Below are positions 11,807 through 49,179 of a stretch of DNA of 64,000 bases, piece by piece. The notes beneath the pieces are model-generated. The model ran no database searches, had not been told where the DNA came from, and worked only from the letters and a program-made list of their open reading frames with translations. A program made the translations under genes and the position numbers. The stretch's first letter is position 1. Every line of letters starts with the position of its first letter. Location: IMG/VR virus record IMGVR_UViG_3300006143_000275; one strand, given 5' to 3'. The stretch comes from a virus. Its lineage: Duplodnaviria > Heunggongvirae > Uroviricota > Caudoviricetes.

Positions 11807-12249
11807 TTACCCCTCTTTTCTCCATAGTTCTACCGTGTATTGCTGGCCAAGAATCTTCTCAATGATTCCGAACACAACACCCCAGTTGCCTCCACCAAGA
11901 CCACATCCAATCTTGTATGGCATTGCAATCGTCTCGCCAGCAGGAACGATCTGTTTTAATTGGAGTAGACACTTTTCAAAAGCTGCATAGTCTGTGTACT
12001 GCCTTCCGTTATAACCGTACTGGTCTTGAGAAAACAGATTGCAAACAACCTGGGGATCAATATTCTTGCCATCAACAGGTGTGCGCCCTCATCGCACCTG
12101 ACCTTATACCATTTGTAAACTGTGGGGAATTTTGTCCTTATCTGCTTTGCGACGCCGCTTCCCATTTTCCCTTGGCAGTTCACTTGGTGGCAAATATAAT
12201 TTGATTTTGTAGAGAACAGGTCTCCATCAATTATTTTGATAGACATCAA
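11807..12249 (-). pseudogene. macro-domain (ADP-ribose binding/processing) gene split by a frameshift
   Basis: Frame A (11956-12249) gives the macro N-terminus IIDGDLFSTKSNYICHQVNCQGKMGSGVAKQI; frame +2 (11807-12088) gives NIDPQVVCNLF...IAMPYKIGCGLGGGNWGVVFGIIEKIL and ends 4 nt before the nadE start. Confidence 0.5.
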
Positions 12250-13772
12250 AATTCCCCTCCATGGAGATTCTGCCGAACCTCATCCAAGGTATAAATTTTG
12301 ATGAACTCCCCATTCTTGAAGACCACCCGTAATTCATTGTTCTCTTGAGCCTCAGCCCAAGTTAGGCCATCCTTATAGATGTAGTTATCACCGTTTTTGA
12401 TCACACGGCAGCAACCCCGCTGAGACTTCTTGAAGTGACCAGTGTCGGTCTTGGGATTCTTGAAAATCATGATGGGCTTGCCGTCTGCATCCTCGGCATA
12501 GGTGGCCTTAACGGCGATACCAAAGGTGTCACGGGTGTATGGTGCGTATGTCTTATTGACAACAGAGATACCGGAAACGGGATTGGGTTCACTTCGTTCC
12601 AAAGTCTCCAAGCACTGCATGGAGAAGGAACCGACGCCAAGGGAGACATTGTTAATGGCAAACCCGTTGGATTCCAGAATCTGATAGATTTGCTTGCATC
12701 GCTGGGGAGTAATGCTGTCACCATACAACGCCTTGACGTGCGGATTCAGCACTTTGAACCCCTTGCTGTTCACGGTGCCTCCAAAAATGTCCCACAGCTT
12801 GAACGCAGTCTTGGTCACGACCTCGACGGGGTCTCCACTGTCTCCACGGATAAGCAGACATCCATCGTGTGCCAGAATCTCGTCTTTGAGCTGCGGCAGG
12901 ATGTTGTCTACCAGATTCCAGTAATCGTAGCTGTCACTGACCATGGAGAAGTTCTGGTGAGGGTAAATCTCGGTCAGCAGACGGCGGATATGGGTGACCT
13001 CGTCACCGTCCATAGCGAAGTTGGAACACATCACGCTGTGTTCGGTGGACAAAGCGCCATAGGCTACCGGCTCCTTAGCACAGTCGCAGTGATAGTTGTC
13101 CTCCAGCCACAGGATTGCGGGAACAGTGGCGGTGTTCAGGAAGCTGAGACAGAAAGCGGCAGAACTTTTGGTGGCGCTCTCCACGCTCTCTTGACCACGC
13201 ATGGAAAAATCGCCAAGGAGTCTGGCGCGGACCACGCTGTCATCACAGGTGCGATCTGTAAACTCGTTGACGATTTGGCGGTAGCGATAGCCGACCTCGG
13301 CGGAAACTTGGGTGTGCCACATGGTGCAGGACAGCATGGTCTCAATGGAGTTCACCAGCCACACAAAGTTCGGATGGGTGTTGGAAATCTCAATTTGCGG
13401 CACCTTGATATTGGTACGCACACCCTCCGGCACGGCCCGAATCTCTAGGGGAAGATAGCCCAAGTCATGAAGAGCTTTCAGGCGCTTTTCTCCAACACCA
13501 TCGGTGTTGATGGTGGCGTTGAGAACCCGCTTATACTCGCTGAGGACATCCTCCCAGTCCTCTTGGAAGAAAAAGTGGTTGAAGGCATCAACGAGGTACT
13601 CCTTGATGAACGCCTGGAGGCCAAACATCGTGACCTTATCTGTGTCTCCCAGCCGGGTCATGCGGGGAGTGTAGTAGGAGACCATCTTGGTCAGGGTCTG
13701 CGGATACTGCTCTGCGTGGGCCGTCTTGTAAAAGTCCAGGCAAAGCAGTGGATTGTAGCAACAACCACTCAT
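12246..13772 (-). CDS. nadV: nicotinamide phosphoribosyltransferase (NAMPT/NadV)
   Basis: 508 aa; N-terminal LDFYKTAHAEQYPQ matches the NAMPT DSYK(V)THyKQYP signature; length typical. Confidence 0.8.
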   Translation of the reverse strand: MSGCCYNPLLCLDFYKTAHAEQYPQTLTKMVSYYTPRMTRLGDTDKVTMFGLQAFIKEYLVDAFNHFFFQEDWEDVLSEYKRVLNATINTDGVGEKRLKALHDLGYLPLEIRAVPEGVRTNIKVPQIEISNTHPNFVWLVNSIETMLSCTMWHTQVSAEVGYRYRQIVNEFTDRTCDDSVVRARLLGDFSMRGQESVESATKSSAAFCLSFLNTATVPAILWLEDNYHCDCAKEPVAYGALSTEHSVMCSNFAMDGDEVTHIRRLLTEIYPHQNFSMVSDSYDYWNLVDNILPQLKDEILAHDGCLLIRGDSGDPVEVVTKTAFKLWDIFGGTVNSKGFKVLNPHVKALYGDSITPQRCKQIYQILESNGFAINNVSLGVGSFSMQCLETLERSEPNPVSGISVVNKTYAPYTRDTFGIAVKATYAEDADGKPIMIFKNPKTDTGHFKKSQRGCCRVIKNGDNYIYKDGLTWAEAQENNELRVVFKNGEFIKIYTLDEVRQNLHGGEF

Positions 13773-16068: not shown

Positions 16069-16241
16069 TGGTTTTCTCCTTAAACTGATATGTTGTTCGT
16101 TCTGTAATCCGTCATTACAGATGTCCAGGTGAGATGTGACTGGACATCTGAATGATGCCAAAGGACTCGCGAGCGGCGCGACTTCGTCGGCGTCAGCCGA
16201 CCTCGTCGCGCTCGCGCAGCGAGGAAACAAACAAATCCATA

Positions 16242-16266
16242 CTCCGATTAACAATACGGAGTGCCC
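16242..16266. repeat. conserved hairpin motif copy E (CTCCG-ATTAACAATA-CGGAG-TGCCC)
   Basis: Stem changed by compensatory substitutions relative to copies A-D. Confidence 0.5.
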
Positions 16267-16355
16267 GCTTTATGTATTGATTGGTTATAACAGGCGATAT
16301 ACATTACAGAACTGTCGGAATTTTCTTTTTGCAGCCTTGAAGAAGTGACGCCGAT

Positions 16356-16403
16356 GATCCAAGATCCGGGAGGATCGCCCGCGATCCGTACGGATCTTTG
16401 ATC
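16356..16403. promoter_or_regulatory. cluster of six GATC sites with 10-bp periodicity inside nested palindromes
   Basis: TGATCCAAGATCCGGGAGGATCGCCCGCGATCCGTACGGATCTTTGATCA. Confidence 0.4.
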
Positions 16404-16438
16404 ATTCGGAGGAACTTCTTTGAGCGTGTGAACGGTTA

Positions 16439-16474
16439 CCCTTGCGTTTCTCTGATTCACAATACAGAGTGCCC
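16439..16474. repeat. conserved hairpin motif copy D
   Basis: CCTTGCGTTTCTCTGATTCACAATACAGAGTGCCC. Confidence 0.5.
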
Positions 16475-16515
16475 TATGTACGCAGACTGTGGGCTAATAC
16501 GCTGCAAAATGATTA

Positions 16516-17130
16516 TTACTCCTGGAACCTGTAGTCAACTCTCTCCCAGTTCCCAGGTCTTAGATATGTGATATAGATTTTGTCAAACGCCCAAGAACCG
16601 ACATCTCCCATGCCAGCCTCTCCGCGATAATCTCCGCCTCCCATGCCATTCCCGATGCAAGTGAGAAGCGGAAGCGGGTTGATACACCACACGCCAGACA
16701 TCCCGTATCTGTCGCGGACGGAGTTCCGCCTTATGTATTCCTCTATGTCGATGTAGCACTTTTTCGTTGCATTCACCAGATAGCACCCGGCGCTGTCGAG
16801 ATCGAGCTTATATTGTGGCGTTTCCGGTGAGATATCCTGAACGCTTCTGTATTCACCCCACACGCCGTTATACTTTTCAAGGAAGGCTTCAACACTTGTG
16901 ATATATCCATCACCAAAGTTGCATCCATCCTCCACTGCATCGGTGGCATAGTCTCCCATCCATGCGATACGGGCCGGTCTGTCCTCGATTTCATGCAGCA
17001 CCGCGTTAACAAAGTTATTGCCGATCCATGAGTGCTCCATCAGCTTGAGCCCATTGTCAAATGCGTGAGAATACGCAGACCGTTCCTCTCCGTCTTCAAA
17101 AATCATCAGCGGTCTATAATACTGTCCCAT
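16516..17130 (-). CDS. hypothetical protein
   Basis: 204-aa ORF. Confidence 0.3.
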   Translation of the reverse strand: MGQYYRPLMIFEDGEERSAYSHAFDNGLKLMEHSWIGNNFVNAVLHEIEDRPARIAWMGDYATDAVEDGCNFGDGYITSVEAFLEKYNGVWGEYRSVQDISPETPQYKLDLDSAGCYLVNATKKCYIDIEEYIRRNSVRDRYGMSGVWCINPLPLLTCIGNGMGGGDYRGEAGMGDVGSWAFDKIYITYLRPGNWERVDYRFQE

Positions 17131-17594: not shown

Positions 17595-17669
17595 TGGTGA
17601 CCCGGACGGGAGTCGAACCCGCGTTACCAGAGTGAAGGTCTGGTGTCTTAACCGCTTGACTACCGGGCC
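17595..17669 (-). tRNA. tRNA-Glu (anticodon TTC)
   Basis: Cloverleaf read by eye; T-loop GGTTCGACTCC; encoded CCA. Confidence 0.6.
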
Positions 17670-17672
17670 GTA

Positions 17673-17748
17673 TGGTCTGAGTGGGGAGGATCGAACTCCC
17701 GGCCTCGTGATCCCAAATCACGCGCTCTGCCAACTGAGCTACACCCAG
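17673..17748 (-). tRNA. tRNA-Pro (anticodon TGG)
   Basis: Anticodon loop TTTGGGA; T-arm GGGAGTTCGATCCTCCC; CCA. Confidence 0.6.
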
Positions 17749-17752
17749 ATAT

Positions 17753-17919
17753 TGTGCGGGCGGGGATTTTCACCCCGCATAGGTAAGATTATGTACCTGC
17801 TACCGAGCTTGTCGCCCATCGGCTACTTCACCGAACCCAAACAGGAGGACAACGATGGACTCGAACCATTGTCTTACCCTACCTCTCGTTATAGCGTCTA
17901 CCTATTCCGCCACCGCACA
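17753..17919 (-). ncRNA. atypical tRNA-like element, about 167 nt, with a tRNA-Leu-type D-arm and a large internal insertion
   Basis: 5' TGTGCGG pairs perfectly with 3' CCGCACA; D-arm GTGGCGGAATAGGTAGACGC matches tRNA-Leu; internal T-arm-like GGACAACGATGGACTCGAACCATTGTC; no clean anticodon arm. Confidence 0.3.
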
Positions 17920-17935
17920 TTTTGTATTGTGTAGC

Positions 17936-17970
17936 TCTAAAAACAGGACTCCCGCAGGCGAGCGTCCCTG
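17936..17970 (-). terminator. rho-independent terminator (minus strand)
   Basis: Hairpin CAGGGACGCTCGCCTGCGGGAGTCCTG followed by TTTTT on the minus strand. Confidence 0.45.
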
Positions 17971-18039
17971 TAAACCTGCTACACTCGGTTTTGAGCGTGC
18001 CCATCCCGCAGGGCGGCGGGGTGCTCCGTGTACTTTGGA

Positions 18040-18073
18040 GCAAAGAAAAAGATCGTGCCGAGAACTACGGCAC
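18040..18073 (-). terminator. rho-independent terminator after tRNA-Gly (minus strand)
   Basis: Hairpin GTGCCGTAGTTCTCGGCAC then TCTTTTTCTTTG on the minus strand. Confidence 0.5.
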
Positions 18074-18075
18074 GC

Positions 18076-18151
18076 TGGAGTGAGAGACGGGACTTGAACC
18101 CGCAGCTTCCGACTTGGAAGGACGGCACTCTGCCAGTTGAGTTACTCCCAC
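18076..18151 (-). tRNA. tRNA-Gly (anticodon TCC)
   Basis: Anticodon loop CTTCCAA; T-arm GCGGGTTCAAGTCCCGT; CCA. Confidence 0.55.
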
Positions 18152-18154
18152 AGA

Positions 18155-18574
18155 TGGTGGAGCCGGCGGGAATCGAACCCGCGTCCGAAATTCCTACATG
18201 AGCAAGACCTTTTTACGCAATAGGTTTCCTTTTAGGTGGATGCCTTATGGCGGGGCACCAAGATGGAATCCAAATCTACCCCAGGGCGTACCAGTTAAGT
18301 ACACCTCCACCACCTTGTCTTTTTGAACAGATTACAAGGAAAACTGTTTTTCTGGCGTATCCTCGACCGCAGGTACTTACCCAGCCAGAGGTGTACCGTT
18401 TTGGAATCCTGCCGACAGTTAAGCGGCGACCCTCTCTGCCATGAAGGCGGCGAAAGCGGGATGGATCATAACAACACTCATATCATTGTCATTTCATTTT
18501 TTGTTTAGCCTTAAGGCGGTCTCTACCTGCGAATCTTACTCTCTCAGAACCCCGTCGAAACCTTTACGGCCCCG
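18155..18574 (-). ncRNA. ssrA: tmRNA (ssrA)
   Basis: 5' end GGGGCCGTAAAGGTTTCGACGGGG matches the tmRNA 5' consensus GGGGCUGAUUCUGGAUUCGACGGG; 3' end GGACGCGGGTTCGATTCCCGCCGGCTCCACCA matches the tmRNA tRNA-like 3' end; the termini pair as an acceptor stem; about 420 nt; internal short ORF ending VAA-TAA. Confidence 0.6.
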
Positions 18575-18677
18575 TAAAAGAGGCCCGGCGTATAGCCGGG
18601 CCGTTCCCCACATTGTTATAGACCGCATGGGTGCGCTGTCTTATTAAATACCATGTTTGCACGTTCCCCTTTCGGGG

Positions 18678-18753
18678 TGGAGCTGGTAACAGGAGTCGAA
18701 CCCGCGACACTCGGAGTACAAAACCGATGCTCTACCAACTGAGCTATACCAGC
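18678..18753 (-). tRNA. tRNA-Thr (anticodon TGT)
   Basis: D-arm GCTCAGTTGGTAGAGC; anticodon loop TTTGTAC; CCA. Confidence 0.55.
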
Positions 18754-18756
18754 AAA

Positions 18757-18832
18757 TGGAGCTGATGCACGGACTCGAACCGCGAACCTAAGCTTTACGA
18801 AAGCCTCGCTCTGCCATTAGAGCTACATCAGC
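18757..18832 (-). tRNA. tRNA-Thr (anticodon CGT)
   Basis: Anticodon stem AGGCT/AGCTT with loop TTCGTAA; T-arm CGCGGTTCGAGTCCGTG; CCA. Confidence 0.55.
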
Positions 18833-18836
18833 ATGT

Positions 18837-18911
18837 TGGCTGGGGTGACTGGATTCGAACCAGCGAATGAGGGAGTCAAAGTCCCTTGCCTTGCCGCTTG
18901 GCGACACCCCA
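18837..18911 (-). tRNA. tRNA-Gln (anticodon TTG)
   Basis: 5' U, 3-bp D-stem, anticodon loop CTTTGAC; CCA. Confidence 0.55.
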
Positions 18912-18946: not shown

Positions 18947-19621
18947 CTATACAAGCATTACCTTATTGTATAAGGCAATGAATTGATCATTCATAATTTT
19001 GTCGATATGGTAGTGTCCAAAATACCAACGTTTGAACTGAAGGTCAACCATAATACGCTCCAGATAGCTTACGAGCGGATCATTTTCATACCAATCTGCA
19101 ATCATGGTCTGAATGCTTCTTGGCGCACAGTGCGTTAACACATAATCAACAGACCATCCGTTGTTATCAAGCGCGTTGATCCCCCGTTCCATCTCTTCCA
19201 TAGATGGCATTTCGTCTTTCCACCAAGAAATATGTTCTGTACGATATTCTTTGTCATGAGATCTTGCACCGCCCATCACAAAGAACCTTTGCCCGTCGAT
19301 GGTCAGAACTTGTCCTCTCTCCAGATGGTAAATATTTGGCGCTATTTCTCGGACTTTACCACCGAACTTATCTTGAAGCGAAAATTTGCGGAGGATATCA
19401 AAATTCTCATGGTTCCCATCGATCCAGAGCGTGGTGAAGTTTTTACCCGCGAGCCATTTTTTCCACCATATCTCTCGTGTAGAACCGTCCCATATGAGCC
19501 CAAAATCCCCACAGACAATTAAATAATCCTTCTTAGTGAGCGATTTTTGCATCGGGAAGTTCTTGACAGACAACTTTTTTATGTCAATGTCCGCATGAGT
19601 ATCCCCTGTCACATAGATCAT
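18947..19621 (-). CDS. calcineurin-like metallophosphoesterase (phage Ser/Thr phosphatase-like)
   Basis: GDTHAD, GDFG, GNHEN motifs. Confidence 0.6.
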   Translation of the reverse strand: MIYVTGDTHADIDIKKLSVKNFPMQKSLTKKDYLIVCGDFGLIWDGSTREIWWKKWLAGKNFTTLWIDGNHENFDILRKFSLQDKFGGKVREIAPNIYHLERGQVLTIDGQRFFVMGGARSHDKEYRTEHISWWKDEMPSMEEMERGINALDNNGWSVDYVLTHCAPRSIQTMIADWYENDPLVSYLERIMVDLQFKRWYFGHYHIDKIMNDQFIALYNKVMLV

Positions 19622-19899
19622 TTTGAACCTCCAAGCATACGCATAAAGCTGTCTTCCTCAATGTCGATGGTTCCTTCTGGTTCATACAGCCTGATCTCAT
19701 TGCGTCCAACATACCATCCAAGTCCATGCTTGCAAGTATGTCCGCAGTCGTGTCCTCTTTGGATGGGCTTACCCCAATTAACACCAATATTATCTGATAC
19801 CCTGCATACTGTGCCAAGGTCGCCTATCTTGATATCAGGATTGCCGTCTGGATGATTACGAATAGCTTCGACACAATCTCCTACTTGAAATTCCATCAC
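19618..19899 (-). CDS. small Cys/His-rich protein (HDCGHTCKHGLGWYV) with a ubiquitin-like C-terminal tail ...SFMRMLGGSK
   Basis: 93 aa; paralog of 19856-20190. Confidence 0.4.
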   Translation of the reverse strand: MMEFQVGDCVEAIRNHPDGNPDIKIGDLGTVCRVSDNIGVNWGKPIQRGHDCGHTCKHGLGWYVGRNEIRLYEPEGTIDIEEDSFMRMLGGSK

Positions 19900-20190
19900 G
19901 CTTTGTCACCCCCCCCGCACGGAGAGCGACACCAAGGAAGGAGTTCTCGTCGATATCTTCAACATCATCTTCGTACGGCCTGATATATCTCGTATGGACA
20001 TACCACCCGTGGCCGTACTCACAATTTCCGGAGCAATCATGTCCTTCACCTAATTCATTATCCCAATCGACACCAACATGATCTCCGTCAATATCGCACA
20101 CCGTTCCAGTATCGCCAACCATGATATAGTCACTCTCATCTGGGTTGTTGACGATAGCTTCTACTCGATCTCCAATTTGATACCTTGCCA
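19856..20190 (-). CDS. small Cys/His-rich protein (HDCSGNCEYGHGWYV); C-terminus ...SFLGVALRAGG reads through a G8 tract
   Basis: Start at MARYQIGDRVEA with an AAAGGGTGG ribosome-binding site; the G8 tract (plus-strand C-run 19909-19916) sits on the GG codons; one G fewer gives ...LRAGG-stop. Confidence 0.4.
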
Positions 20191-20636
20191 TGGATACCAC
20201 CCTTTCGTGAAAGTCTGGCGCAATACTTAAAACCTGTGTTTTATCCCATACATAATAGCCATACTGCATGGGATGGCAAAAGGACGCTGAACTCGGGATT
20301 TTCCACTACCTCTTATTTCAAATAAATACTCGGATCAGCGTCCTAAAGTCCTTGAAATACGCACTTTGTTGTTTGTGATCTGCATTATATCTCGGCAGGC
20401 TACGAGGAGGGCTCCCTGCATCCGGATACAGCTCCCGGTTACTGCTGTCATCTGGTTTGGAATGATGTCGTGTGTCTGTGGGTTCCTGACATCGGGTGCC
20501 GAACTCCTTGAGTCTCAGTGTGTTGGCGGGTTTGGTGACCTTTGTCCTGATGGCCCCTGTGCGGGTCGGCGCCTGAGCAGGTGGTCGTCGGCTGCCGCGG
20601 GATCTCTGATCGCACGCACTGCGGCCGCCAAGCCGT

Positions 20637-20683
20637 CATCCTCCACCCAACCATTCGTTACTCTGATTTACAATACAGAGTTT
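20637..20683. repeat. conserved hairpin motif copy A
   Basis: CATCCTCCACCCAACCATTCGTTACTCTGATTTACAATACAGAGTTT. Confidence 0.55.
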
Positions 20684-20719
20684 AAGTCTTTCGACTTAAA
20701 ATACATCGCAACAACAAAG

Positions 20720-21298
20720 TTATTTTATATGCACAATATATCGCCCGCCGGTCGGCGGCTCTTGCTCAACGACCCGAAAACCAACAGAAGAATACTGATC
20801 CCAAACCTGTCCCCAGTTGATATAGTCGGTCAGCACGTCTTTACTGAGGGTGTCAAGCATCTCGTCTGTAACACCGTGGTCAAACGGCACTTTGAGTTCA
20901 GTCGCCAGATAACAAGCTGCGGTCTCCTTTGCGTTCATCGCCCAATGAAGATCAGATATGTCCTCGAACATAAAATCGTTTTCTTTCAGCTTACGCACAA
21001 ATTCCGGATCGAACAGGTCACCAGAAGACGAAGCTTCCATCAGAACCTTCAAATAATCTTCCGTCATCCCAGGATTTTCGCTGTTGATATCATCCAGTAT
21101 ATCGTTCAATCCACTGATATCGTCGTTTCGGCTGATTGGAATGTTGGGCGTGGTGGACAGAATAATGTAATCATAATGATTCTCTAATTCTGCCCGCAGA
21201 TTACATGGCAGTACAATGACTTTGGATTCGCCGCAATCCAAATCACTGACTTCGACTGCCAGTTGAATCATATCAACCACCTCTTTCATGCTTTGCAT
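20720..21298 (-). CDS. acidic hypothetical protein
   Basis: 192 aa, D/E-rich; sits between two copies of the conserved intergenic motif, immediately downstream (minus sense) of the RT gene. Confidence 0.35.
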   Translation of the reverse strand: MQSMKEVVDMIQLAVEVSDLDCGESKVIVLPCNLRAELENHYDYIILSTTPNIPISRNDDISGLNDILDDINSENPGMTEDYLKVLMEASSSGDLFDPEFVRKLKENDFMFEDISDLHWAMNAKETAACYLATELKVPFDHGVTDEMLDTLSKDVLTDYINWGQVWDQYSSVGFRVVEQEPPTGGRYIVHIK

Positions 21299-21552
21299 AA
21301 ACTTTGTAATCTACCATAAGGGATAGGAAGCTGGCCATGGTTTCCTCCAGAGAGGTGAGTCTGGGAATGTCATCTCGTGTGTTCCCGGCTGTCCGAACTG
21401 GTGTCAGGTTTCAGGAATTTTTGTGACGGAGTTCCTGCTGATTTCCTGGCGAAATGTGCAGTTCGGTAATAGTTCCGTTCTTCGTGATGTTGGTAAGGGT
21501 GTTTAGCATCTCCTGCTGCCGTCGCGGCCGGCAGCACTGCGCAGCCTGGCAG

Positions 21553-21601
21553 GCTCCCTTCTCCCAGCCATTCGTTACTCTGATTTACAATACAGAGTGC
21601 C
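21553..21601. repeat. conserved hairpin motif copy B
   Basis: CTCCCTTCTCCCAGCCATTCGTTACTCTGATTTACAATACAGAGTGCC. Confidence 0.55.
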
Positions 21602-21643
21602 TTTTGAGGAACAAAAGGCTATACATTACAAAATTTTGCTTAT

Positions 21644-22783
21644 TTATGCGGCCAAATCCTCATGGATGGTACGCATTACGTCCGTTTGATATTTTTCGTT
21701 GTTGTACTTGATGACCTCGTCAACATACTTTTCTTCAACCATCCGGTAGTAGTTGATAAGGCCGCGCAAAACCTGAACATCGTGCAGTTCCCAGACAATT
21801 CCGTTCTTACGGTCGAGGATGTAGTTGCTGATCATTGCACGAAAACGCTGCTTGTTCTTGTGACCGATGGTGATCTCATTGTCCTTATTGAGCATGAGCC
21901 CGAGGTTCCAATTACTGCCGGCTCTGGAACCATACCTCGTCTTCTCATCCTTGATCTTGAACGGCGCATGGAAATCATCCAGCGTCTGATTGATGAAGTC
22001 GATGACCTTATTGTAGTCAAACTCTCTCCGGCTTGAAATTAGAGAGTCGTCTGCGTATCTGGTGTAAACGAACGACTGCCCGTTAAAATCACGCAGGGTA
22101 TTGTATACCTTGTGATCAAGGGGGATCATCATCAGATTTGTGAGCATCGGAGAAATCGGCGTGCCCTGCGGCAATCCGCCATGAAGAAAACAGAGGTTGA
22201 GTGCCTTGTCCAGTGCTGCTCTGCCCCGTTCTGACTTGACAATCTCGCTGAACGGGAAAATCAAAGAGAGCGAATACCGAAGGAATACCAGCGTTGTGTC
22301 CCCAAAAAAGTTCGAGAAATCCGTCTTTAAGAACCAATGACTGTCATTCCTCTGGTGACGTTTGATGGCGTCAATGGTGGAACGATTCTTAACATAGGCA
22401 AAGGCGGAGGTGTGGTACAGCGCAAACATCTTGGTCTCAAACAAAGTCTTCAGATTCCGAAGCGCCGTCATCAGTTCTGGCACAGGGGCATTGATCTCAC
22501 GCAGGCCGCCGGACTTCTTCGGAATATGGAATGTGGTATAGAGGGCTTCTCTCGGAACGGCATACAGCTCGGCATTTTGTTCGCAAAAACTCTCCAGAGC
22601 GGAGACCATACCGGCGAAATCGAACCGATCCAGAAACTGTGGCTTGAGTCGCTGTGCGAAATGCGTTCTGGTATTGGTGCTGTTTGAAGTTATCATAGAC
22701 TGCATGTTGACCTCACCAGATATGATTTCCTCAAATGATATCTGATGGTATGCAGGCGATTGCATGACGGTTATGTATGGCAT
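21644..22783 (-). CDS. reverse transcriptase (retron / group II-like RT domain, standalone)
   Basis: RT motifs YTTFHIPKKSGGLREINAP, GLPQGTPISPMLTNLMM and YTRYADDSLIS (YxDD box); 379 aa; no maturase/endonuclease or RNase H extension. Confidence 0.8.
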   Translation of the reverse strand: MPYITVMQSPAYHQISFEEIISGEVNMQSMITSNSTNTRTHFAQRLKPQFLDRFDFAGMVSALESFCEQNAELYAVPREALYTTFHIPKKSGGLREINAPVPELMTALRNLKTLFETKMFALYHTSAFAYVKNRSTIDAIKRHQRNDSHWFLKTDFSNFFGDTTLVFLRYSLSLIFPFSEIVKSERGRAALDKALNLCFLHGGLPQGTPISPMLTNLMMIPLDHKVYNTLRDFNGQSFVYTRYADDSLISSRREFDYNKVIDFINQTLDDFHAPFKIKDEKTRYGSRAGSNWNLGLMLNKDNEITIGHKNKQRFRAMISNYILDRKNGIVWELHDVQVLRGLINYYRMVEEKYVDEVIKYNNEKYQTDVMRTIHEDLAA

Positions 22784-23082
22784 ATTTTTAATACCTCCTG
22801 ATGTCTGTATTCTGGTATACAGTAGGTTGAGGAATTCAGGATGCGATGGGTACTTGAGAGCTGGGACTGAGTGCGGGCTCGGTGGGTAATCTGGTGAGTG
22901 ATTTGCGGCGGTCCGATGGTTCTTGGGGTCGCCATCTGTCTTCCTGTTTGCTGTCCGTCACCTTTCTGGTCGAGATGTCAAGAGTTCTTTGCGTATTTGG
23001 AGCAGTAGAAAACAGTTTATTTATTACCTCTTGACCTCGGTGGCGGGCAGGCGCCTTCAGATTCCGCCTCCGGGCGGGGTGT

Positions 23083-23128
23083 CCCTTCTCCCAGCCATGC
23101 GCAACTCTGATTTACAATACAGAGCACC
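23083..23128. repeat. conserved hairpin motif copy C (start of the RT leader)
   Basis: TCCCTTCTCCCAGCCATGCGCAACTCTGATTTACAATACAGAGCACC. Confidence 0.55.
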
Positions 23129-23227
23129 CTCAGAATAACTCTGAAAGTAATGCAATACAGACTATATGGAAGGGGCAGCGGCAACCAAAGCCACTGCCCC
23201 TATAGAACTATCGTAAAACGTGATGCC

Positions 23228-23899
23228 TTACACGGCGATCACGTCGAATTCAAAAGCATCCACAAGAATCATCTTGCGGAGTTTCTCGCCCTTCACGAAG
23301 TTGATGAAGTTGGCTACGCCGTAGGCAACGATCGTTCGCACCGTCGGAACAACCGACAGTGTGATATTGCAGGCAGAAACGGGCGTCGCCTCTTTTGCCT
23401 CATCATGAGAGAACGCCATGCTGTCGATAAAGTTCTCCACCATCTTCTTGTCGCTCCAGTCAGCGGCATAGTGCTGGGCGTCCGTCAGCCGCATCCGGAA
23501 GTCGAACATCCCCTTGACGAACGTGTTCTCCTTACAGGAGGTGGCGATCTCCCGGCGGAGGTCAATGTTGTCCACCGCCAGGAACACATAACCGGAGAGA
23601 CGCTGGCCTGTCCAGCCCTCTTTGACCAGCTTCAGATCGGGGGCGCAGTCCGGATTGATCTCGGTGAGATACTCAGCCAAAGCATCAACCTTGGCCTTGC
23701 CGATATCCGTATTCCGGAACATCTGGTTGGCAATGTTGTGGGCTTCTACGGTATCGAAGTCATACAGCGTGATTTTCGTAATGCCGAACCGCACCAGATT
23801 CTCAGCGACCGTGGAACCAATCGCTCCACAGCCGATGATATGAATCCGCGATTCGAGCATATCCGGCTTGAAGAATTCGTAGGACTTCGCCAAATCCAT
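23228..23899 (-). CDS. ThiF/MoeB-family E1-like adenylyltransferase
   Basis: Rossmann IHIIGCGAIGSTVAENLVRFGITKITLYDFDTVE; 223 aa. Confidence 0.7.
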   Translation of the reverse strand: MDLAKSYEFFKPDMLESRIHIIGCGAIGSTVAENLVRFGITKITLYDFDTVEAHNIANQMFRNTDIGKAKVDALAEYLTEINPDCAPDLKLVKEGWTGQRLSGYVFLAVDNIDLRREIATSCKENTFVKGMFDFRMRLTDAQHYAADWSDKKMVENFIDSMAFSHDEAKEATPVSACNITLSVVPTVRTIVAYGVANFINFVKGEKLRKMILVDAFEFDVIAV

Positions 23900-23916
23900 T
23901 GTTTGTCTCTCCTTTC

Positions 23917-24789
23917 TTACTGTCCGAGGTATAGGCGGTCATAGGGATCGTCTTCGTCGAATTGGTAGTCGGAAAAGGACCGGCCAATGCCGGTATCACC
24001 TCCGTTTACCTTCGGTTTTGTTTTGACTCCGACGACGCTCGCACCGGCCGTCGCCGCCGGCGTTGTTGTCTGACTGATGGGTGTGACGACCCGCGTCTGC
24101 GTCTGCTGATAGGTTCCCTGAAAACCGGTGACAGGCTTATAGGTTCTGTTGGTGACGATCTCCTTGGCGCTGCTGATGAAAGCCTGAAGATCCACGCCGA
24201 CATCTCCAATATACACATCAACATCTGCCGTGTCGTACAGGGTGTTGTTCTTCAGATCGAAGATGCGGACAAAGTGCTCGTACCGCTTGTTCCAGATCAT
24301 GAAGATGTAGTAGTCGTCATCGGAGATTTGCTCCAGAATCTTCTCCTGGTGAGTTGTGTCCACACCAGAGGGAGACACGCCCATATTGACGTGGCTGTGT
24401 CCTTGCATCCGGATGTTATTGAACACATCATCATCAAAGGAGTAAAGCCACGTCTGGTACGCCTCTTGATCGGTGTTGACCGTTGCGCCGGTAACAACCT
24501 GCGGGTATACCAAAATGTCGGTGATGTGGAAGATGGACGGATCCTGCTCATCACGGTGAACCACGCCGTGCCACGCGACCTCGTCGTTGAACTGCTGAAT
24601 GAGCGAGTTCATCTTGGCGAAGGCAATCGAGGACAGGTAGACAGTTGCCCGGTCGTCATCGCCCTCCCACTTGAACGTCCGGCTGTATTCCAGCTTTCCG
24701 TCAAACATCTTGGTGGACTTCACCTTTGCGATGAACTCCTCCTGAATTTTTTGCAGCAGCTCGTCCGTGAGCTTAATGGGCTTACTCAT
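23917..24789 (-). CDS. JAB/MPN (JAMM) metalloprotease-domain protein
   Basis: JAMM motif GHSHVNMGVSPSGVD (HxHx7Sx2D) with an upstream Glu; start taken at MSKPIKLTDELL. Confidence 0.65.
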   Translation of the reverse strand: MSKPIKLTDELLQKIQEEFIAKVKSTKMFDGKLEYSRTFKWEGDDDRATVYLSSIAFAKMNSLIQQFNDEVAWHGVVHRDEQDPSIFHITDILVYPQVVTGATVNTDQEAYQTWLYSFDDDVFNNIRMQGHSHVNMGVSPSGVDTTHQEKILEQISDDDYYIFMIWNKRYEHFVRIFDLKNNTLYDTADVDVYIGDVGVDLQAFISSAKEIVTNRTYKPVTGFQGTYQQTQTRVVTPISQTTTPAATAGASVVGVKTKPKVNGGDTGIGRSFSDYQFDEDDPYDRLYLGQ

Positions 24790-26275
24790 GGCTCTCCTCC
24801 TGTTCTTTTTCTTTCTTCGCCTTGACATCTTGTTCCTCCAACCACAATACGGCCTCAAACGGCGTCTTGGTCGTACCGTCGGGCATTTCGATTACCTTAC
24901 CGATCCTGTTCGAGAACAGCAACTGCGTCATCTTGCCGGTTGTTGCGCTCTCCTGAACATTGACGCTCTTTGCCGACTGAACACAAGCAGCTACCGCGCC
25001 GACATAATCCCGGTTACGCATAGATTGGCGAATTGTCGCCTCATTTCCACCAAGGCAGTGAAACGCCTGGATGTGCTGGTTCGGCGTGTGATCCATGATG
25101 ATATCCGACGGGAAATCGTATCCGCTAATCCCGGCGTACCTGCCGTTATCGAAGTTCAGCGAATATGCGGCGCAAATGCGAATCTTCATCGTCTCTTTGA
25201 CGAAAATCTCCGTCATCAGACGCTTAATGCGCTCTACCGTCATATTTTCGTTGTCACGATATTCATAGATGTAGCTACGGTTATTCTGAATGACGGACTC
25301 CGCTGCGTCAGGATCGAAGTTTGCAACCGTGGTGGTTACAATGAACTTGATTTCGCCATTGTATACGCTGACCAGATGCAGCGAATTGTTGCATAGGAAG
25401 TAGTCCAAAAGCTCGCTGCTCTCCGCGCCGCCTCCGTGTGTGATTTTATCGACCAGACCGCACTCCTGCGTTCTCAGGTCGTCCATCTGCTGGTAGTAAT
25501 TGGAGAAAGTGCTCTCCAAATCACGCATCCTGCGATCCATATCGTTGATCTGGCTGCGGACGGACTCCAGCTTCCGGCGGTCAAAGTGTGTTTCAAAGCC
25601 GGTCAACTGATTGCGGATAACCTGTGACCGGAAGTCAAACCGCTTGGCGAACTCCTGAATCTTCGTTTCATAGCTGGGGGCGTAACGCTTTGTGAGCGTC
25701 TTGACGATCTCAATCTCCTCGTCAGTCATCGGATTGGACTCGAAGTACCACGGGAAGTAGCGGGAAATCAGAGACTCCAGCATGTGCCACCGCTTCATGT
25801 TCATCTTTTCCGTGAAGATGATGGTGTTGCGGTACTCCTCGTTCACATAGACCTTGGCGCGGAACTTTGCGTCGCTCTCAATCCATGCGGACAGATCCGC
25901 CAGGAGCTTGTATCCAGAGACTGTCTTTGGAACACCTTCAACGAGTTTCTCGAAGCAGGTTGTGTTGCTCTCGTCGCTCCCCTCAAATGAATGGATGAGC
26001 AAAATGCCGGTTGAACCATCCATAATCGGAGTTCGGTTAAAGAAAGCCCTGACGCAGTCTCTCGGAGACGAGCCAGATAACTGCCCGGAACTGTAGTCTG
26101 TGCTTTTATATCGCAGTGTGATTGACTCCTCTTTCGGAACCCTGCTATACAGCAAAGCTCTCAAGGTCGCAACGAACGACTCGTCATTGCGGAACTTATC
26201 TCCGCCGATATTCGGGAATACGGTCGATGCGATCTCATTGGTGAGAGTCAGACCAGTGATTTCTTTTGAGAACAT
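24782..26275 (-). CDS. large hypothetical protein (497 aa) in the E1/JAB operon; possible E2-like region
   Basis: C-terminal DHTPNQHIQAFHC loosely resembles the UBC HPN...C catalytic motif (weak). Confidence 0.35.
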   Translation of the reverse strand: MFSKEITGLTLTNEIASTVFPNIGGDKFRNDESFVATLRALLYSRVPKEESITLRYKSTDYSSGQLSGSSPRDCVRAFFNRTPIMDGSTGILLIHSFEGSDESNTTCFEKLVEGVPKTVSGYKLLADLSAWIESDAKFRAKVYVNEEYRNTIIFTEKMNMKRWHMLESLISRYFPWYFESNPMTDEEIEIVKTLTKRYAPSYETKIQEFAKRFDFRSQVIRNQLTGFETHFDRRKLESVRSQINDMDRRMRDLESTFSNYYQQMDDLRTQECGLVDKITHGGGAESSELLDYFLCNNSLHLVSVYNGEIKFIVTTTVANFDPDAAESVIQNNRSYIYEYRDNENMTVERIKRLMTEIFVKETMKIRICAAYSLNFDNGRYAGISGYDFPSDIIMDHTPNQHIQAFHCLGGNEATIRQSMRNRDYVGAVAACVQSAKSVNVQESATTGKMTQLLFSNRIGKVIEMPDGTTKTPFEAVLWLEEQDVKAKKEKEQEESHE

Positions 26276-26364
26276 AGCCTGCTCCTTTTCTGAAAGATTT
26301 AAGGGCTCCCACCGCTCAGATGGGAGCCCTCGGCCCTATGTATAGGGGACTGCGGTGGGTCTGA

Positions 26365-26619
26365 TCAGGCGTTGTCAGCCTTGACGACGGAGATCAGGAA
26401 GCACTTGTCGTGGCCGGGCTCGCCGGTGTAGCCCATCTCGGCGAAGGTCTGATCCAGCTTGGCACCGGTGACGGTCTCGCCGTCCAGGGACAGCATACCC
26501 ACGGAGTAGTCGATGCCGGTCTCGCCCTGGGTGCTCTCCAGAGCCTGGCGGATGGTGGTGTTGGGGTTCAGGTTGAAACGGGCGCGCTTCAGGTTGTTAC
26601 CGATAGTGACGTTAATCAT
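26365..26619 (-). CDS. small protein (84 aa), possible beta-grasp/Ubl-like
   Basis: Alternating strand/helix pattern MINVTIGNN...MLSLDGETVTGAKL reminiscent of ThiS/MoaD; C-terminus is not GG. Confidence 0.3.
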   Translation of the reverse strand: MINVTIGNNLKRARFNLNPNTTIRQALESTQGETGIDYSVGMLSLDGETVTGAKLDQTFAEMGYTGEPGHDKCFLISVVKADNA

Positions 26620-28836: not shown

Positions 28837-28922
28837 TGGTGTCGATGATGGGATTTGAACCCATACGGCGTTAGAGCCAACAGGGTTTGAGCCTGTCATG
28901 TCTACTATTCCATCACATCGAC
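28837..28922 (-). tRNA. tRNA-Leu (anticodon CAA), type II
   Basis: Anticodon loop CTCAAAC; long variable arm; T-arm ATGGGTTCAAATCCCAT; CCA. Confidence 0.5.
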
Positions 28923-28925
28923 ATA

Positions 28926-29012
28926 TGGTGTGGGCGGCGGGAATTGAACCCGCACATCGAACCCGATATAGAGGCTTAAACTCCATGTGTCTTCCAATTC
29001 CACCACGCCCAC
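28926..29012 (-). tRNA. tRNA-Leu (anticodon TAA), type II
   Basis: Anticodon loop TTTAAGC; variable arm with ATCG/CGAT stem; T-arm GCGGGTTCAATTCCCGC; CCA. Confidence 0.5.
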
Positions 29013-31267: not shown

Positions 31268-31343
31268 TGGTGGAGATAGTCGGGATCGAACCGGCGACCT
31301 CCTGCTTGCAAGGCAGGCGCTCTCCCATCTGAGCTATATCCCC
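31268..31343 (-). tRNA. tRNA-Ala (anticodon TGC)
   Basis: GGGGATATAGCTCAGATGGGAGAGCGCCTGCCTTGCAAGCAGGAGGTCGCCGGTTCGATCCCGACTATCTCCACCA. Confidence 0.6.
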
Positions 31344-31348
31344 ATATT

Positions 31349-31434
31349 AGAGAGTGGTGGGAATCGAACCCACGCAGCGCATATCCGGTTGACAGGCATG
31401 TATCTGCCCCGCTCTGCCACTGAGCTACACTCTC
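31349..31434 (-). tRNA. tRNA of uncertain identity (about 86 nt) with an apparently 8-nt anticodon loop and a long variable region
   Basis: Canonical acceptor, D-arm (GCTCAGTGGCAGAGC) and T-arm (GTGGGTTCGATTCCCAC); best anticodon stem GGCAG/CTGTC encloses ATACATGC; no encoded CCA. Confidence 0.35.
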
Positions 31435-35793: not shown

Positions 35794-36042
35794 AAGCCGT
35801 CCGGAAATTCTGGACGGCGACCCACGCTACTGAGGTTTCTTATTTCGTAAGTGTGCGTGTAGCTTAGTCCGTATCAATTCATAAACTAAACTATCGGATT
35901 TTCCCGACTTTCTACCCACTGCTGGGTCATCCCCTCAGACCAAGGAATGGGGACGCCTCCCAATCCCTTCCGTATCTCGGTACTCTTTTCACGATACGGT
36001 ATGCCGCGTAAAGCCCGTCGCGGTCAGCTTTGCCATGTGGTT

Positions 36043-36115
36043 TAGCGTGGACCGGGCTTGAACCGGCGACACACGGATTATCAATCCGCAGCTCTACCTA
36101 CTGAGCTACCACGCC
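36043..36115 (-). tRNA. tRNA-Ile (anticodon GAT)
   Basis: GGCGTGGTAGCTCAGTAGGTAGAGCTGCGGATTGATAATCCGTGTGTCGCCGGTTCAAGCCCGGTCCACGCT; no encoded CCA. Confidence 0.5.
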
Positions 36116-36170
36116 ATATGCAAACCGAACCTCAAAATCGGTATGAGGATCGGTTTACTAACTGAAATCA

Positions 36171-49059: not shown

Positions 49060-49133
49060 TCGCGGAGTCGTCTAATGGTAGGACGCCTGGTTCATGCCCA
49101 GGAAATCAGAGTTCGAGTCTCTGCACCGCAACC
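49060..49133 (+). tRNA. tRNA-Met (anticodon CAT) with initiator-like C1-A72 mismatch
   Basis: 5' CGCGGAG / 3' CACCGCAACCA; anticodon loop TTCATGC; T-arm CAGAGTTCGAGTCTCTG. Confidence 0.5.
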
Positions 49134-49179
49134 AAGAATATTCTAACATTTATATAAGCAAAGACGAAAGGGTGAATTT

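Follow-up and report, generated by a model that had tools for sequence, protein, structure and literature searches.

The window analysed here, a stretch of 64,000 nucleotides from the genome of a gut phage (Caudoviricetes; IMG/VR record IMGVR_UViG_3300006143_000275) that encodes a terminase, a portal protein, an exonuclease and NAMPT, carries on its minus strand a gene for a reverse transcriptase (RT) together with five copies of a structured, putatively non-coding RNA (ncRNA) unit. One unit lies 5' of the RT gene, two lie 3' of it and two are found about 5 kb beyond. The RT and these units are described below as a candidate phage-encoded, retron-like element.

21644..22783, minus strand: retron-like RT, 379 aa, YADD intact (open reading frame and RVT_1)

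The reverse transcriptase

A preliminary description of the locus, made from the letters alone, had reported a 379-aa RT with characteristic motifs and with no maturase, endonuclease or RNase H domain. The translation of the open reading frame (ORF) bears this out: it contains FHIPKKSGGLREINAP, GLPQGTPISPML and YTRYADD, its sole Pfam match is RVT_1 (2.6e-17), and none of the three domains was found with Pfam. Of the 66 matching families in PADLOC, the best 25 are retron RT models, with RT_II-A at the top (6e-47). The best NCBIfam match is retron_St85_RT (2e-51, 175 bits), and the top eight matches among PDB sequences are retron RTs (type I-A, Ec83, Ec78 and Ec67; best 1.6e-17). The PDB alignments start near residue 70 and reach the C-terminus, and the RT has an N-terminal extension of about 60-70 aa that is absent from the solved retron RT structures aligned. 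Retron RTs have the motifs NAxxH in region X and VTG in region Y, in which the H and the G are most conserved (Mestre et al. 2020, PMC7736814); when aligned to retron RTs, the phage protein has AIKRH at NAxxH and NLG at VTG, with the H and the G retained. Judged from its sequence, the RT is intact, and retron RTs are its closest matches. Because it scores below the curated cut-off and keeps these motifs only in part, it appears to be retron-like, yet outside any curated retron family.

The same searches bear on two other classes, diversity-generating retroelements (DGRs) and degenerate group II introns. Either might be suggested by a phage RT of about 380 aa that has a non-coding region beside it, and a group II RT/maturase is a secondary match (7e-23). 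However, the score against TIGR04416 is 81 bits, compared with a cut-off of 300, no intron was matched by Rfam in 20000-24500, and the maturase and endonuclease domains of such introns are lacking. Motif 4 reads GLPQGTPISP (QGxPxSP) and is not of the SQ type of DGRs. No imperfect repeat of the template/variable repeat (TR/VR) type was found in the 64-kb window, where the RT region repeats nothing but the unit modules, and substitutions between close relatives are mostly transitions, with no adenine bias. Both classes were rejected on the repeat search, motif 4, TIGR04416 and Rfam, and we regard them as extremely improbable. The earlier placement of the RT with retrons, and not with DGRs or group II introns, agrees with PADLOC, NCBIfam, the PDB and the repeat search.

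Homologues of the RT are numerous: 5532 were found by a word index, and at E <= 1e-30 the family comprises 433 clusters (50% identity) in a set of 1.84 billion cluster representatives. Near-full-length members that share 37-56% identity number more than 150, and every genomic context examined was a phage genome. Deposited phages gave no megablast match to 20000-26000, and the window has no close relative among them; tblastn found one unannotated gut phage contig (42% identity) and, as distant matches, retron-type RTs of Staphylococcus, Klebsiella, Pseudomonas and Vibrio phages (25-29% identity).

RNA units in the window

The 444 nt upstream of the RT gene (22784-23227) had been described as a GC-rich, ORF-free leader with several hairpins, preceded by a terminator and placed as the ncRNA of a retron would be. 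Only short ORFs occur there, nothing exceeding 71 aa on either strand, as stated; the GC content (0.52-0.55) is raised only moderately. The fold of the leader has a z-score of -2.4. The hairpins named in that description exist (GGGGCAG...CTGCCCC at 23200-23172, and CTGTATTCTGGTATACAG, which overlaps the element a2 defined below), and the first of them is no canonical terminator because it has no U-tract. A conserved motif had also been noticed, and it is real: its 21-mer has five matches in the window against zero expected, all on the minus strand (23104, 21577, 20660, 16449 and 16241), and each of three consecutive genes has an ORF-free leader of 330-450 nt that opens with it.

All five matches belong to units with one layout on the RT strand: an arm a1, a G, two hairpins, a variable part of 150-250 nt, a second G and an arm a2. 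What had been taken for a separate feature at the start of the leader is the msr-like core (5' module) of such a unit. The leader does contain a unit of about 360 nt with retron geometry, but this unit is not specific to the RT, since there are five in the window. A covariance model (CM) built from units of other phages only, with no window sequences, recovered U2, U3, U1 and U5 and, in part, U4, all on the minus strand.

22803..23162, minus strand: ncRNA unit U1, upstream of the RT (a1/a2 covariation, hairpin 2 covariation, CM E = 8.2e-7); a1 23162-23154 (GUCUGUAUU), G 23153, hairpin 1 near 23148-23126, hairpin 2 23124-23105, a conserved tail that reaches about 23088, the variable middle, G 22812, a2 22811-22803 (AAUACAGAC)
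21303..21632, minus strand: ncRNA unit U2, starting 12 nt 3' of the RT stop (CM E = 8.8e-10); a1 21632-21625 (UUUGUAAU), G 21624, hairpin 2 21597-21578, GGUAG before a2, a2 21310-21303 (AUUACAAA)
20363..20720, minus strand: ncRNA unit U3, anchored manually (CM E = 7.1e-9); a1 20720-20705 (ACUUUGUUGUUGCGAU), G 20704, hairpin 2 20680-20661, AUGCAG before a2, a2 20379-20363 (AUCACAAACAACAAAGU, with one mismatch and one bulge)
20344-20281: hairpin 3' of U3, followed by a sigma-70-like site at 20279-20252
16327..16509, minus strand: ncRNA unit U4, short (span 165; CM hit partial only, E = 0.82); a1 16509-16501 (UUUUGCAGC), G 16500, hairpin 2 16469-16450, a2 16335-16327 (GCUGCAAAA)
16099..16312, minus strand: ncRNA unit U5, in tandem with U4 (CM E = 6.7e-4); a1 16312-16303 (GUUCUGUAAU), G 16302, hairpin 2 16261-16242, a2 16108-16099 (AUUACAGAAC)

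The a2 arm of U1 ends 19 nt 5' of the RT ATG (22783), with a Shine-Dalgarno sequence (22798-22793) between them. A further CM hit at 16951-17021 on the minus strand (E = 0.047) lies inside a 204-aa ORF (16516-17130) and was probably due to chance. As a sigma-70 promoter or a terminator the motif was rejected: nothing rose above shuffled sequences, and the 'terminators' predicted are hairpin 1 of the units. Rfam, searched at a permissive threshold over 20000-24500, gave only chance matches of the snoRNA type (E > 5).

Structure and covariation across phages

For the comparison of units, 61 IMG/VR loci were used, whose RT homologues share 45-85% identity. In about 55 of 60 loci of related phages, an ORF-free gap of 314-542 nt lies 5' of the RT gene, and only its first 70 nt or so and its last 40 nt or so are conserved between phage subgroups. 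The 5' block of the unit consists of a short box, a hairpin of variable sequence, a second hairpin (5 bp, a bulge, 3 bp and a triloop) and the tail GUAACrAAUkG. In hairpin 2, the inner 3 bp are AUU/AAU in the window and GCC/GGC in most relatives. The 8-16 nt before the 5' invariant G are complementary to the nucleotides after the 3' invariant G, and such pairing is present for essentially every motif copy, as in the following examples (the slash marks the junction of arm and G):

Window U1: a1 side GUCUGUAUU/G; a2 side G/AAUACAGAC
L006 U1: a1 side AACUGUAAC/G; a2 side G/GUUACAGUU
L007 U1: a1 side AUGAAUUGUAAC/G; a2 side G/GUUACAAUUCAU
L044 U1: a1 side GUUUCUGUAAU/G; a2 side G/AUUACAGAAAC
Downstream units: a1 side UUUGCAAU/G; a2 side G/AUUGCAAA
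Downstream units, second type: a1 side UGUACAAU/G; a2 side G/AUUGUACA

The base 3' of a1 is G in 48 of 48 aligned units, a G being required there by the detector, and the base 5' of a2 is G in all 107 distinct units (consensus AUGyAG). In an ungapped alignment of 48 distinct units and 14 a1/a2 pairs, 164 cells had changed on both sides, compared with 66 in shuffles (none of 500 shuffles was as high). Pairing was possible in 79.5% of the cells, against 32-39% with slid partners, and the nine pairs adjoining the G were 92-100% paired. For hairpin 2, RNAalifold gave compensatory changes in six of nine pairs, and its G-U pairs are compatible with the RT-sense strand only. The base of hairpin 1 pairs in 73-86 of 99 units, against 43-71 in shuffles, and so exceeds every shuffle. 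The a1/a2 stem and hairpin 2 are maintained by compensatory changes. The a1/a2 inverted repeats and the G at the putative priming position just 3' of a1, which the preliminary description had suggested looking for in the leader, are both present and covary across many phages.

The middles of the units are 150-250 nt long, rich in A (about 30%) and C (28%) and weakly structured. Alifold detected no covariation within them among close relatives; between phage subgroups they cannot be aligned, and no conserved protein was found in them. These properties touch on the idea that the RT copies the units by a mechanism other than that of retrons, as in class 2 defense-associated RTs (DRT) and RTs of the unknown groups (UG): template jumping or rolling-circle copying into concatemeric cDNA or a de novo gene (DRT2/Neo-like), or protein priming. 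A long ncRNA adjoining the RT, with closing complementarity between its 5' and 3' ends and an A/C-rich, weakly structured template part, fits this idea, and at least one stop-free frame crosses the variable part in 46 of 125 units, compared with 29 of 125 when shuffled. However, this surplus of stop-free frames is modest and comes from redundant sequences, and variable parts that neither align between subgroups nor hold a conserved protein speak against the idea. The RT itself reaches only 45.7 bits with Drt2 (NF041746; cut-off 390, 5e-12, residues 202-283 only) and 27.6 bits with Drt3a (cut-off 200, 2e-6), while retron RT models fill the first 25 places in PADLOC. Identity with DRT2 was rejected on the mismatch of RT family (NF041746) and the weak excess of stop-free frames, and copying by any such non-retron mechanism seems to us very unlikely.

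In the lineage of the window, a copy of the a1 of U1 (UCUGUAUU/G) lies inside hairpin 2 (23124-23105), and a local hairpin, CUGUAU-ACCAG-AAUACAG, overlaps the a2 of U1 (22825-22803). This a2 can therefore pair with either of two partners and might work as a conformational switch.

Linkage to the RT and divergence of the units

Related phages have two to four units (two or three flanking the RT per locus), down to 37% RT identity and always on the RT strand. A typical relative has one unit 5' of the RT, one 25-40 nt 3' of the RT stop and usually a third in tandem, each with its own a1/a2. The exact hairpin-2 pattern was scanned over all of IMG/VR (2.9 million viral contigs) and gave 48 hits, 42 of them in loci that contain the RT. 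Of the remaining six, five are on contigs whose RT lies in a separate locus, and one (L101) is at the edge of its locus. Distant relatives with 37-47% RT identity (for example, L137/L138, L050, L044, L144 and L062) have units with the same signature, some of them 3' of the RT and as short as 151 nt. Since unit and RT co-occur despite changes in their relative position, these comparisons argue for a functional pair rather than chance synteny.

The unit middles diverge at different rates in different pairs of phages. Between L027 and L029, the four-fold sites of the RT gene are 99.3% identical, the ends of the units 97.5-100% and the U1 middle only 78.6%, the substitutions being mostly transitions. 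Between the window and its relative L146, the U1 middle (81%) and the U2 middle (88%) diverge about neutrally (83.7% at the four-fold sites of the RT). In some near-identical pairs (L027/L029, the L006 group and the L022 group), the U1 middles have diverged up to about 30-50 times faster than the adjacent RT gene. Along the window and L146, identity rises from about 0.93 in the RT and the 183-aa gene 3' of it to 0.995-1.0 from U3 (about 20720) onward, and therefore a recombination breakpoint lies at a unit. Swapping of cassettes at the conserved ends, diversifying selection and hypermutation of a template region are possible sources of the divergence of the middles.

The units might, instead, act in cis, as RNA or DNA elements in a hypervariable stretch of early genes, and lie near the RT by location only: RNase III-type processing or insulator structures with a long-range stem, translational switches, or cassette-shuffling repeats like the promoter early stem-loops (PeSL) of T4-type phages. 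The breakpoint between the window and L146 agrees with this, conserved ends around divergent middles are what crossover at the ends would leave, and accessory genes have been inserted between units. Moreover, units precede differing genes (the RT, the 183-aa gene and a metallophosphatase gene), with a2 a few nucleotides 5' of the Shine-Dalgarno sequence. However, the exact hairpin-2 pattern is restricted to RT-carrying contigs in the IMG/VR scan, and the units track the RT in distant phages in which gene order has altered and a unit has moved to the 3' side of the RT. Tandem units with no intervening gene (e.g., U2-U3 of L006) are not leaders, and the arrangement of a1, G, two hairpins, G and a2 is that of retron ncRNAs. 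Among the rival readings, a role of the units in cis-regulation or recombination alone is the strongest one left, and we consider it unlikely.

A candidate retron-like element with several templates

In the reading we prefer, and hold to be fairly probable, the phage encodes a retron-like element whose single RT serves a whole array of paralogous template RNAs. If retrons such as Ec86 are a guide, the region would be transcribed and each unit would fold on its own a1/a2 stem. The RT would then recognise the shared hairpin module, and the 2'-OH of the invariant G after a1 would prime cDNA synthesis, as it does in retrons. The cDNA would begin next to a2 and copy the variable, A/C-rich middle, and the outcome would be several distinct branched RNA-DNA molecules resembling multicopy single-stranded DNA (msDNA). 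Because the RT and the units are fixed in a lineage of phages and none of the known retron toxins is present, the product may, speculatively, benefit the phage itself (a decoy for host defences, say, or a regulator during infection) and not act as a classical abortive-infection retron. The anti-defence or superinfection-exclusion module put forward in the preliminary description is likewise a conjectural role.

Several observations weigh against this reading. The 175 bits of the RT fall below the curated retron_St85_RT cut-off of 235, and the strict NAxxH and VTG motifs are replaced by AIKRH and NLG. The units, about 175-360 nt including a1/a2, are longer than the 169-nt Ec86 ncRNA, and minimum free energy folds of 18 units gave multi-branched middles with no single long stem-loop of the msd type. 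PADLOC recognised no retron effector among five neighbour proteins, and several units per RT are undescribed for any retron in the literature searched. Units are often situated just 5' of Shine-Dalgarno sequences and at recombination breakpoints, which leaves room for a cis-regulatory or recombinational role, and every step of the scheme beyond the RNA fold is drawn from retrons by analogy.

Retrons are currently seen as abortive-infection defences of bacteria and prophages that consist of one ncRNA, one RT and a toxin, and in the literature that we searched, phage-encoded retron arrays were nowhere described. Should the units be reverse-transcribed, phages would exploit retron chemistry for their own ends, and the locus would represent a natural multiplexed retron with long (150-250 nt), replaceable templates; such a long-template retron would bear on retron-based production of single-stranded DNA and on genome editing. 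The recurrence of the arrangement across a large phage family suggests that phages make their own use of retron-like DNA synthesis.

Neighboring genes

Directly 5' of U1 and the RT lies an operon, 23228-26619 on the minus strand, for a ubiquitin-like protein (Ubl) and putative partners of the E2, JAB and E1 types.

26365-26619, minus strand: Ubl-like protein, 84 aa, in the upstream operon
24782-26275, minus strand: E2-like protein, 497 aa (weak assignment; invariant HTPNQH..C motif)
23917-24858, minus strand: JAB/JAMM protein, 313 aa (HSHx7SxxD motif, weak RPN11 matches)
23228-23899, minus strand: ThiF/E1 protein, 222-223 aa (Pfam)

In the IMG/VR loci and in contigs at 37-40% RT identity, the RT is always 3' of this operon, with zero to two small genes between them. 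The preliminary description had called the RT 'standalone', which is doubtful given that it sits directly 3' of the operon even at 37% RT identity. Across the family the Ubl-like protein has about 80 aa and a conserved C-terminus, K-x-D-N-A; one relative ends in DGG-RQ. The operon is possibly linked in function to the RT, and, if the units are reverse-transcribed, the constant pairing with the phage Ubl operon offers a testable functional link. CD-NTases (cGAS/DncV-like nucleotidyltransferases) are substrates of Cap2; that the RT is likewise an E1/E2 substrate is unsupported, the C-termini of the RTs not being conserved.

A wider proposal is that the RT, the template array and the Ubl operon form one phage system. 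It would produce varied msDNA-like molecules whose fast-changing middles are under arms-race selection, perhaps as decoys or guides against host immunity, and the Ubl, E2, JAB and E1 proteins would work on the complex of RT and msDNA or on what that complex targets. We consider this quite unlikely. If true, no earlier retron-type system would be known to work for a virus, and none to have a set of templates that is multiplexed and diversifying. Literature searches gave no RT linked to ThiF/JAB and no published link of ubiquitin-like conjugation operons with an RT.

On the other side of the RT, an acidic protein had been suggested as an effector or accessory partner.

20720..21271, minus strand (ORF extends to 21298): acidic protein, 183 aa from the ATG at 21271, 192 aa at full ORF

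The start at 21271, giving 183 aa, is more likely, because gene callers report 183 aa on near-identical contigs. The protein has no match in Pfam, PADLOC, PHROG, NCBIfam or the PDB. Its gene is present only in the window and its four closest relatives (L001-L004), and it is separated from the RT by U2 and followed on its other side by U3. From this distribution it is seen as an accessory cassette gene and not as a conserved partner of the RT.

Between U3 and the metallophosphatase gene (18947-19621) are two tandem paralogous genes for small proteins with an SH3-like region (19856-20269 and 19618-19899, minus strand); their DNA repeat is about 61% identical.

Elsewhere in the window, the gene for NAMPT (nicotinamide phosphoribosyltransferase; 12246-13772, minus strand) matches PHROG 448 at 1e-156; its product is an enzyme of NAD salvage and might offset host defences that deplete NAD. 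The window also has twelve genes for tRNAs and one for a tmRNA (17595-18911, 28837-29012, 31268-31434, 36042-36116 and 49061-49134). The tag peptide of the tmRNA is AVEDTPEKQFSL, and ARAGORN reports a tRNA-like gene at 31349-31434 with a four-base anticodon (acat). Contigs of the phage family (L063-L088) are binned in metagenome-assembled genomes that are mostly named as Clostridia, and also as Bacteroides, Prevotella, Alistipes and 'archaeon'; because these bins are taxonomically inconsistent, the host cannot be named from them.

Comparison with known systems

The St85/Ec86 retrons (type II-A; Retron-Eco1 and Retron-Sen2) have the best-scoring RT family, an ncRNA on the RT strand adjoining the gene, terminal inverted repeats, a G 3' of a1 and a G 5' of a2, and two hairpins after the G, all as in the phage element. 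The Ec86 ncRNA sequence was checked against genomes: it matches at 100% in 48 E. coli genomes, beside genes annotated as a retron St85 family effector and an RT, and its junctions, TGCGCACCCTTA/G ... CTGACG/TAAGGGTGCGCA, have the same order of a1, G, G and a2 as the units. The phage RT differs in being about 60-70 aa longer at the N-terminus, in scoring below the family cut-off and in keeping NAxxH and VTG only partly. The phage units measure 165-342 nt from the G to a2, with no obvious long msd hairpin, and several are present per RT. The phage element also has no nucleoside deoxyribosyltransferase-like effector, and it is fixed in a phage lineage, unlike retrons in defence hotspots of bacteria or prophages.

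Retron clades 2 and 11 include (msr-msd)-RT cassettes that stand alone (Mestre et al. 2020, PMC7736814), which resemble the phage element in combining an RT and an ncRNA with no recognisable effector gene; multiple ncRNA units and a phage context are not described there. The type VI retrons with hybrid RNA (10.1101/2025.10.22.683967) have, like the phage units, a structured template RNA directly 5' of a coding sequence, and therefore reverse transcription could control the translation of the next gene. This likeness is only an analogy: PADLOC ranks other types first, the genes downstream vary by unit, some units have none, and the phage element has no helix-turn-helix (HTH) or small-toxin pair.

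The neighbouring operon differs from the Bil/Bub-type ubiquitin-like conjugation operons in being phage-encoded, in having a minimal E1 (a 223-aa ThiF protein) and a weakly assigned E2-like protein, and in a Ubl that in most members ends in D-N-A, not GG. It agrees with them in its content, the same four parts (Ubl, E2, JAB and E1) being placed together directly 5' of the RT.

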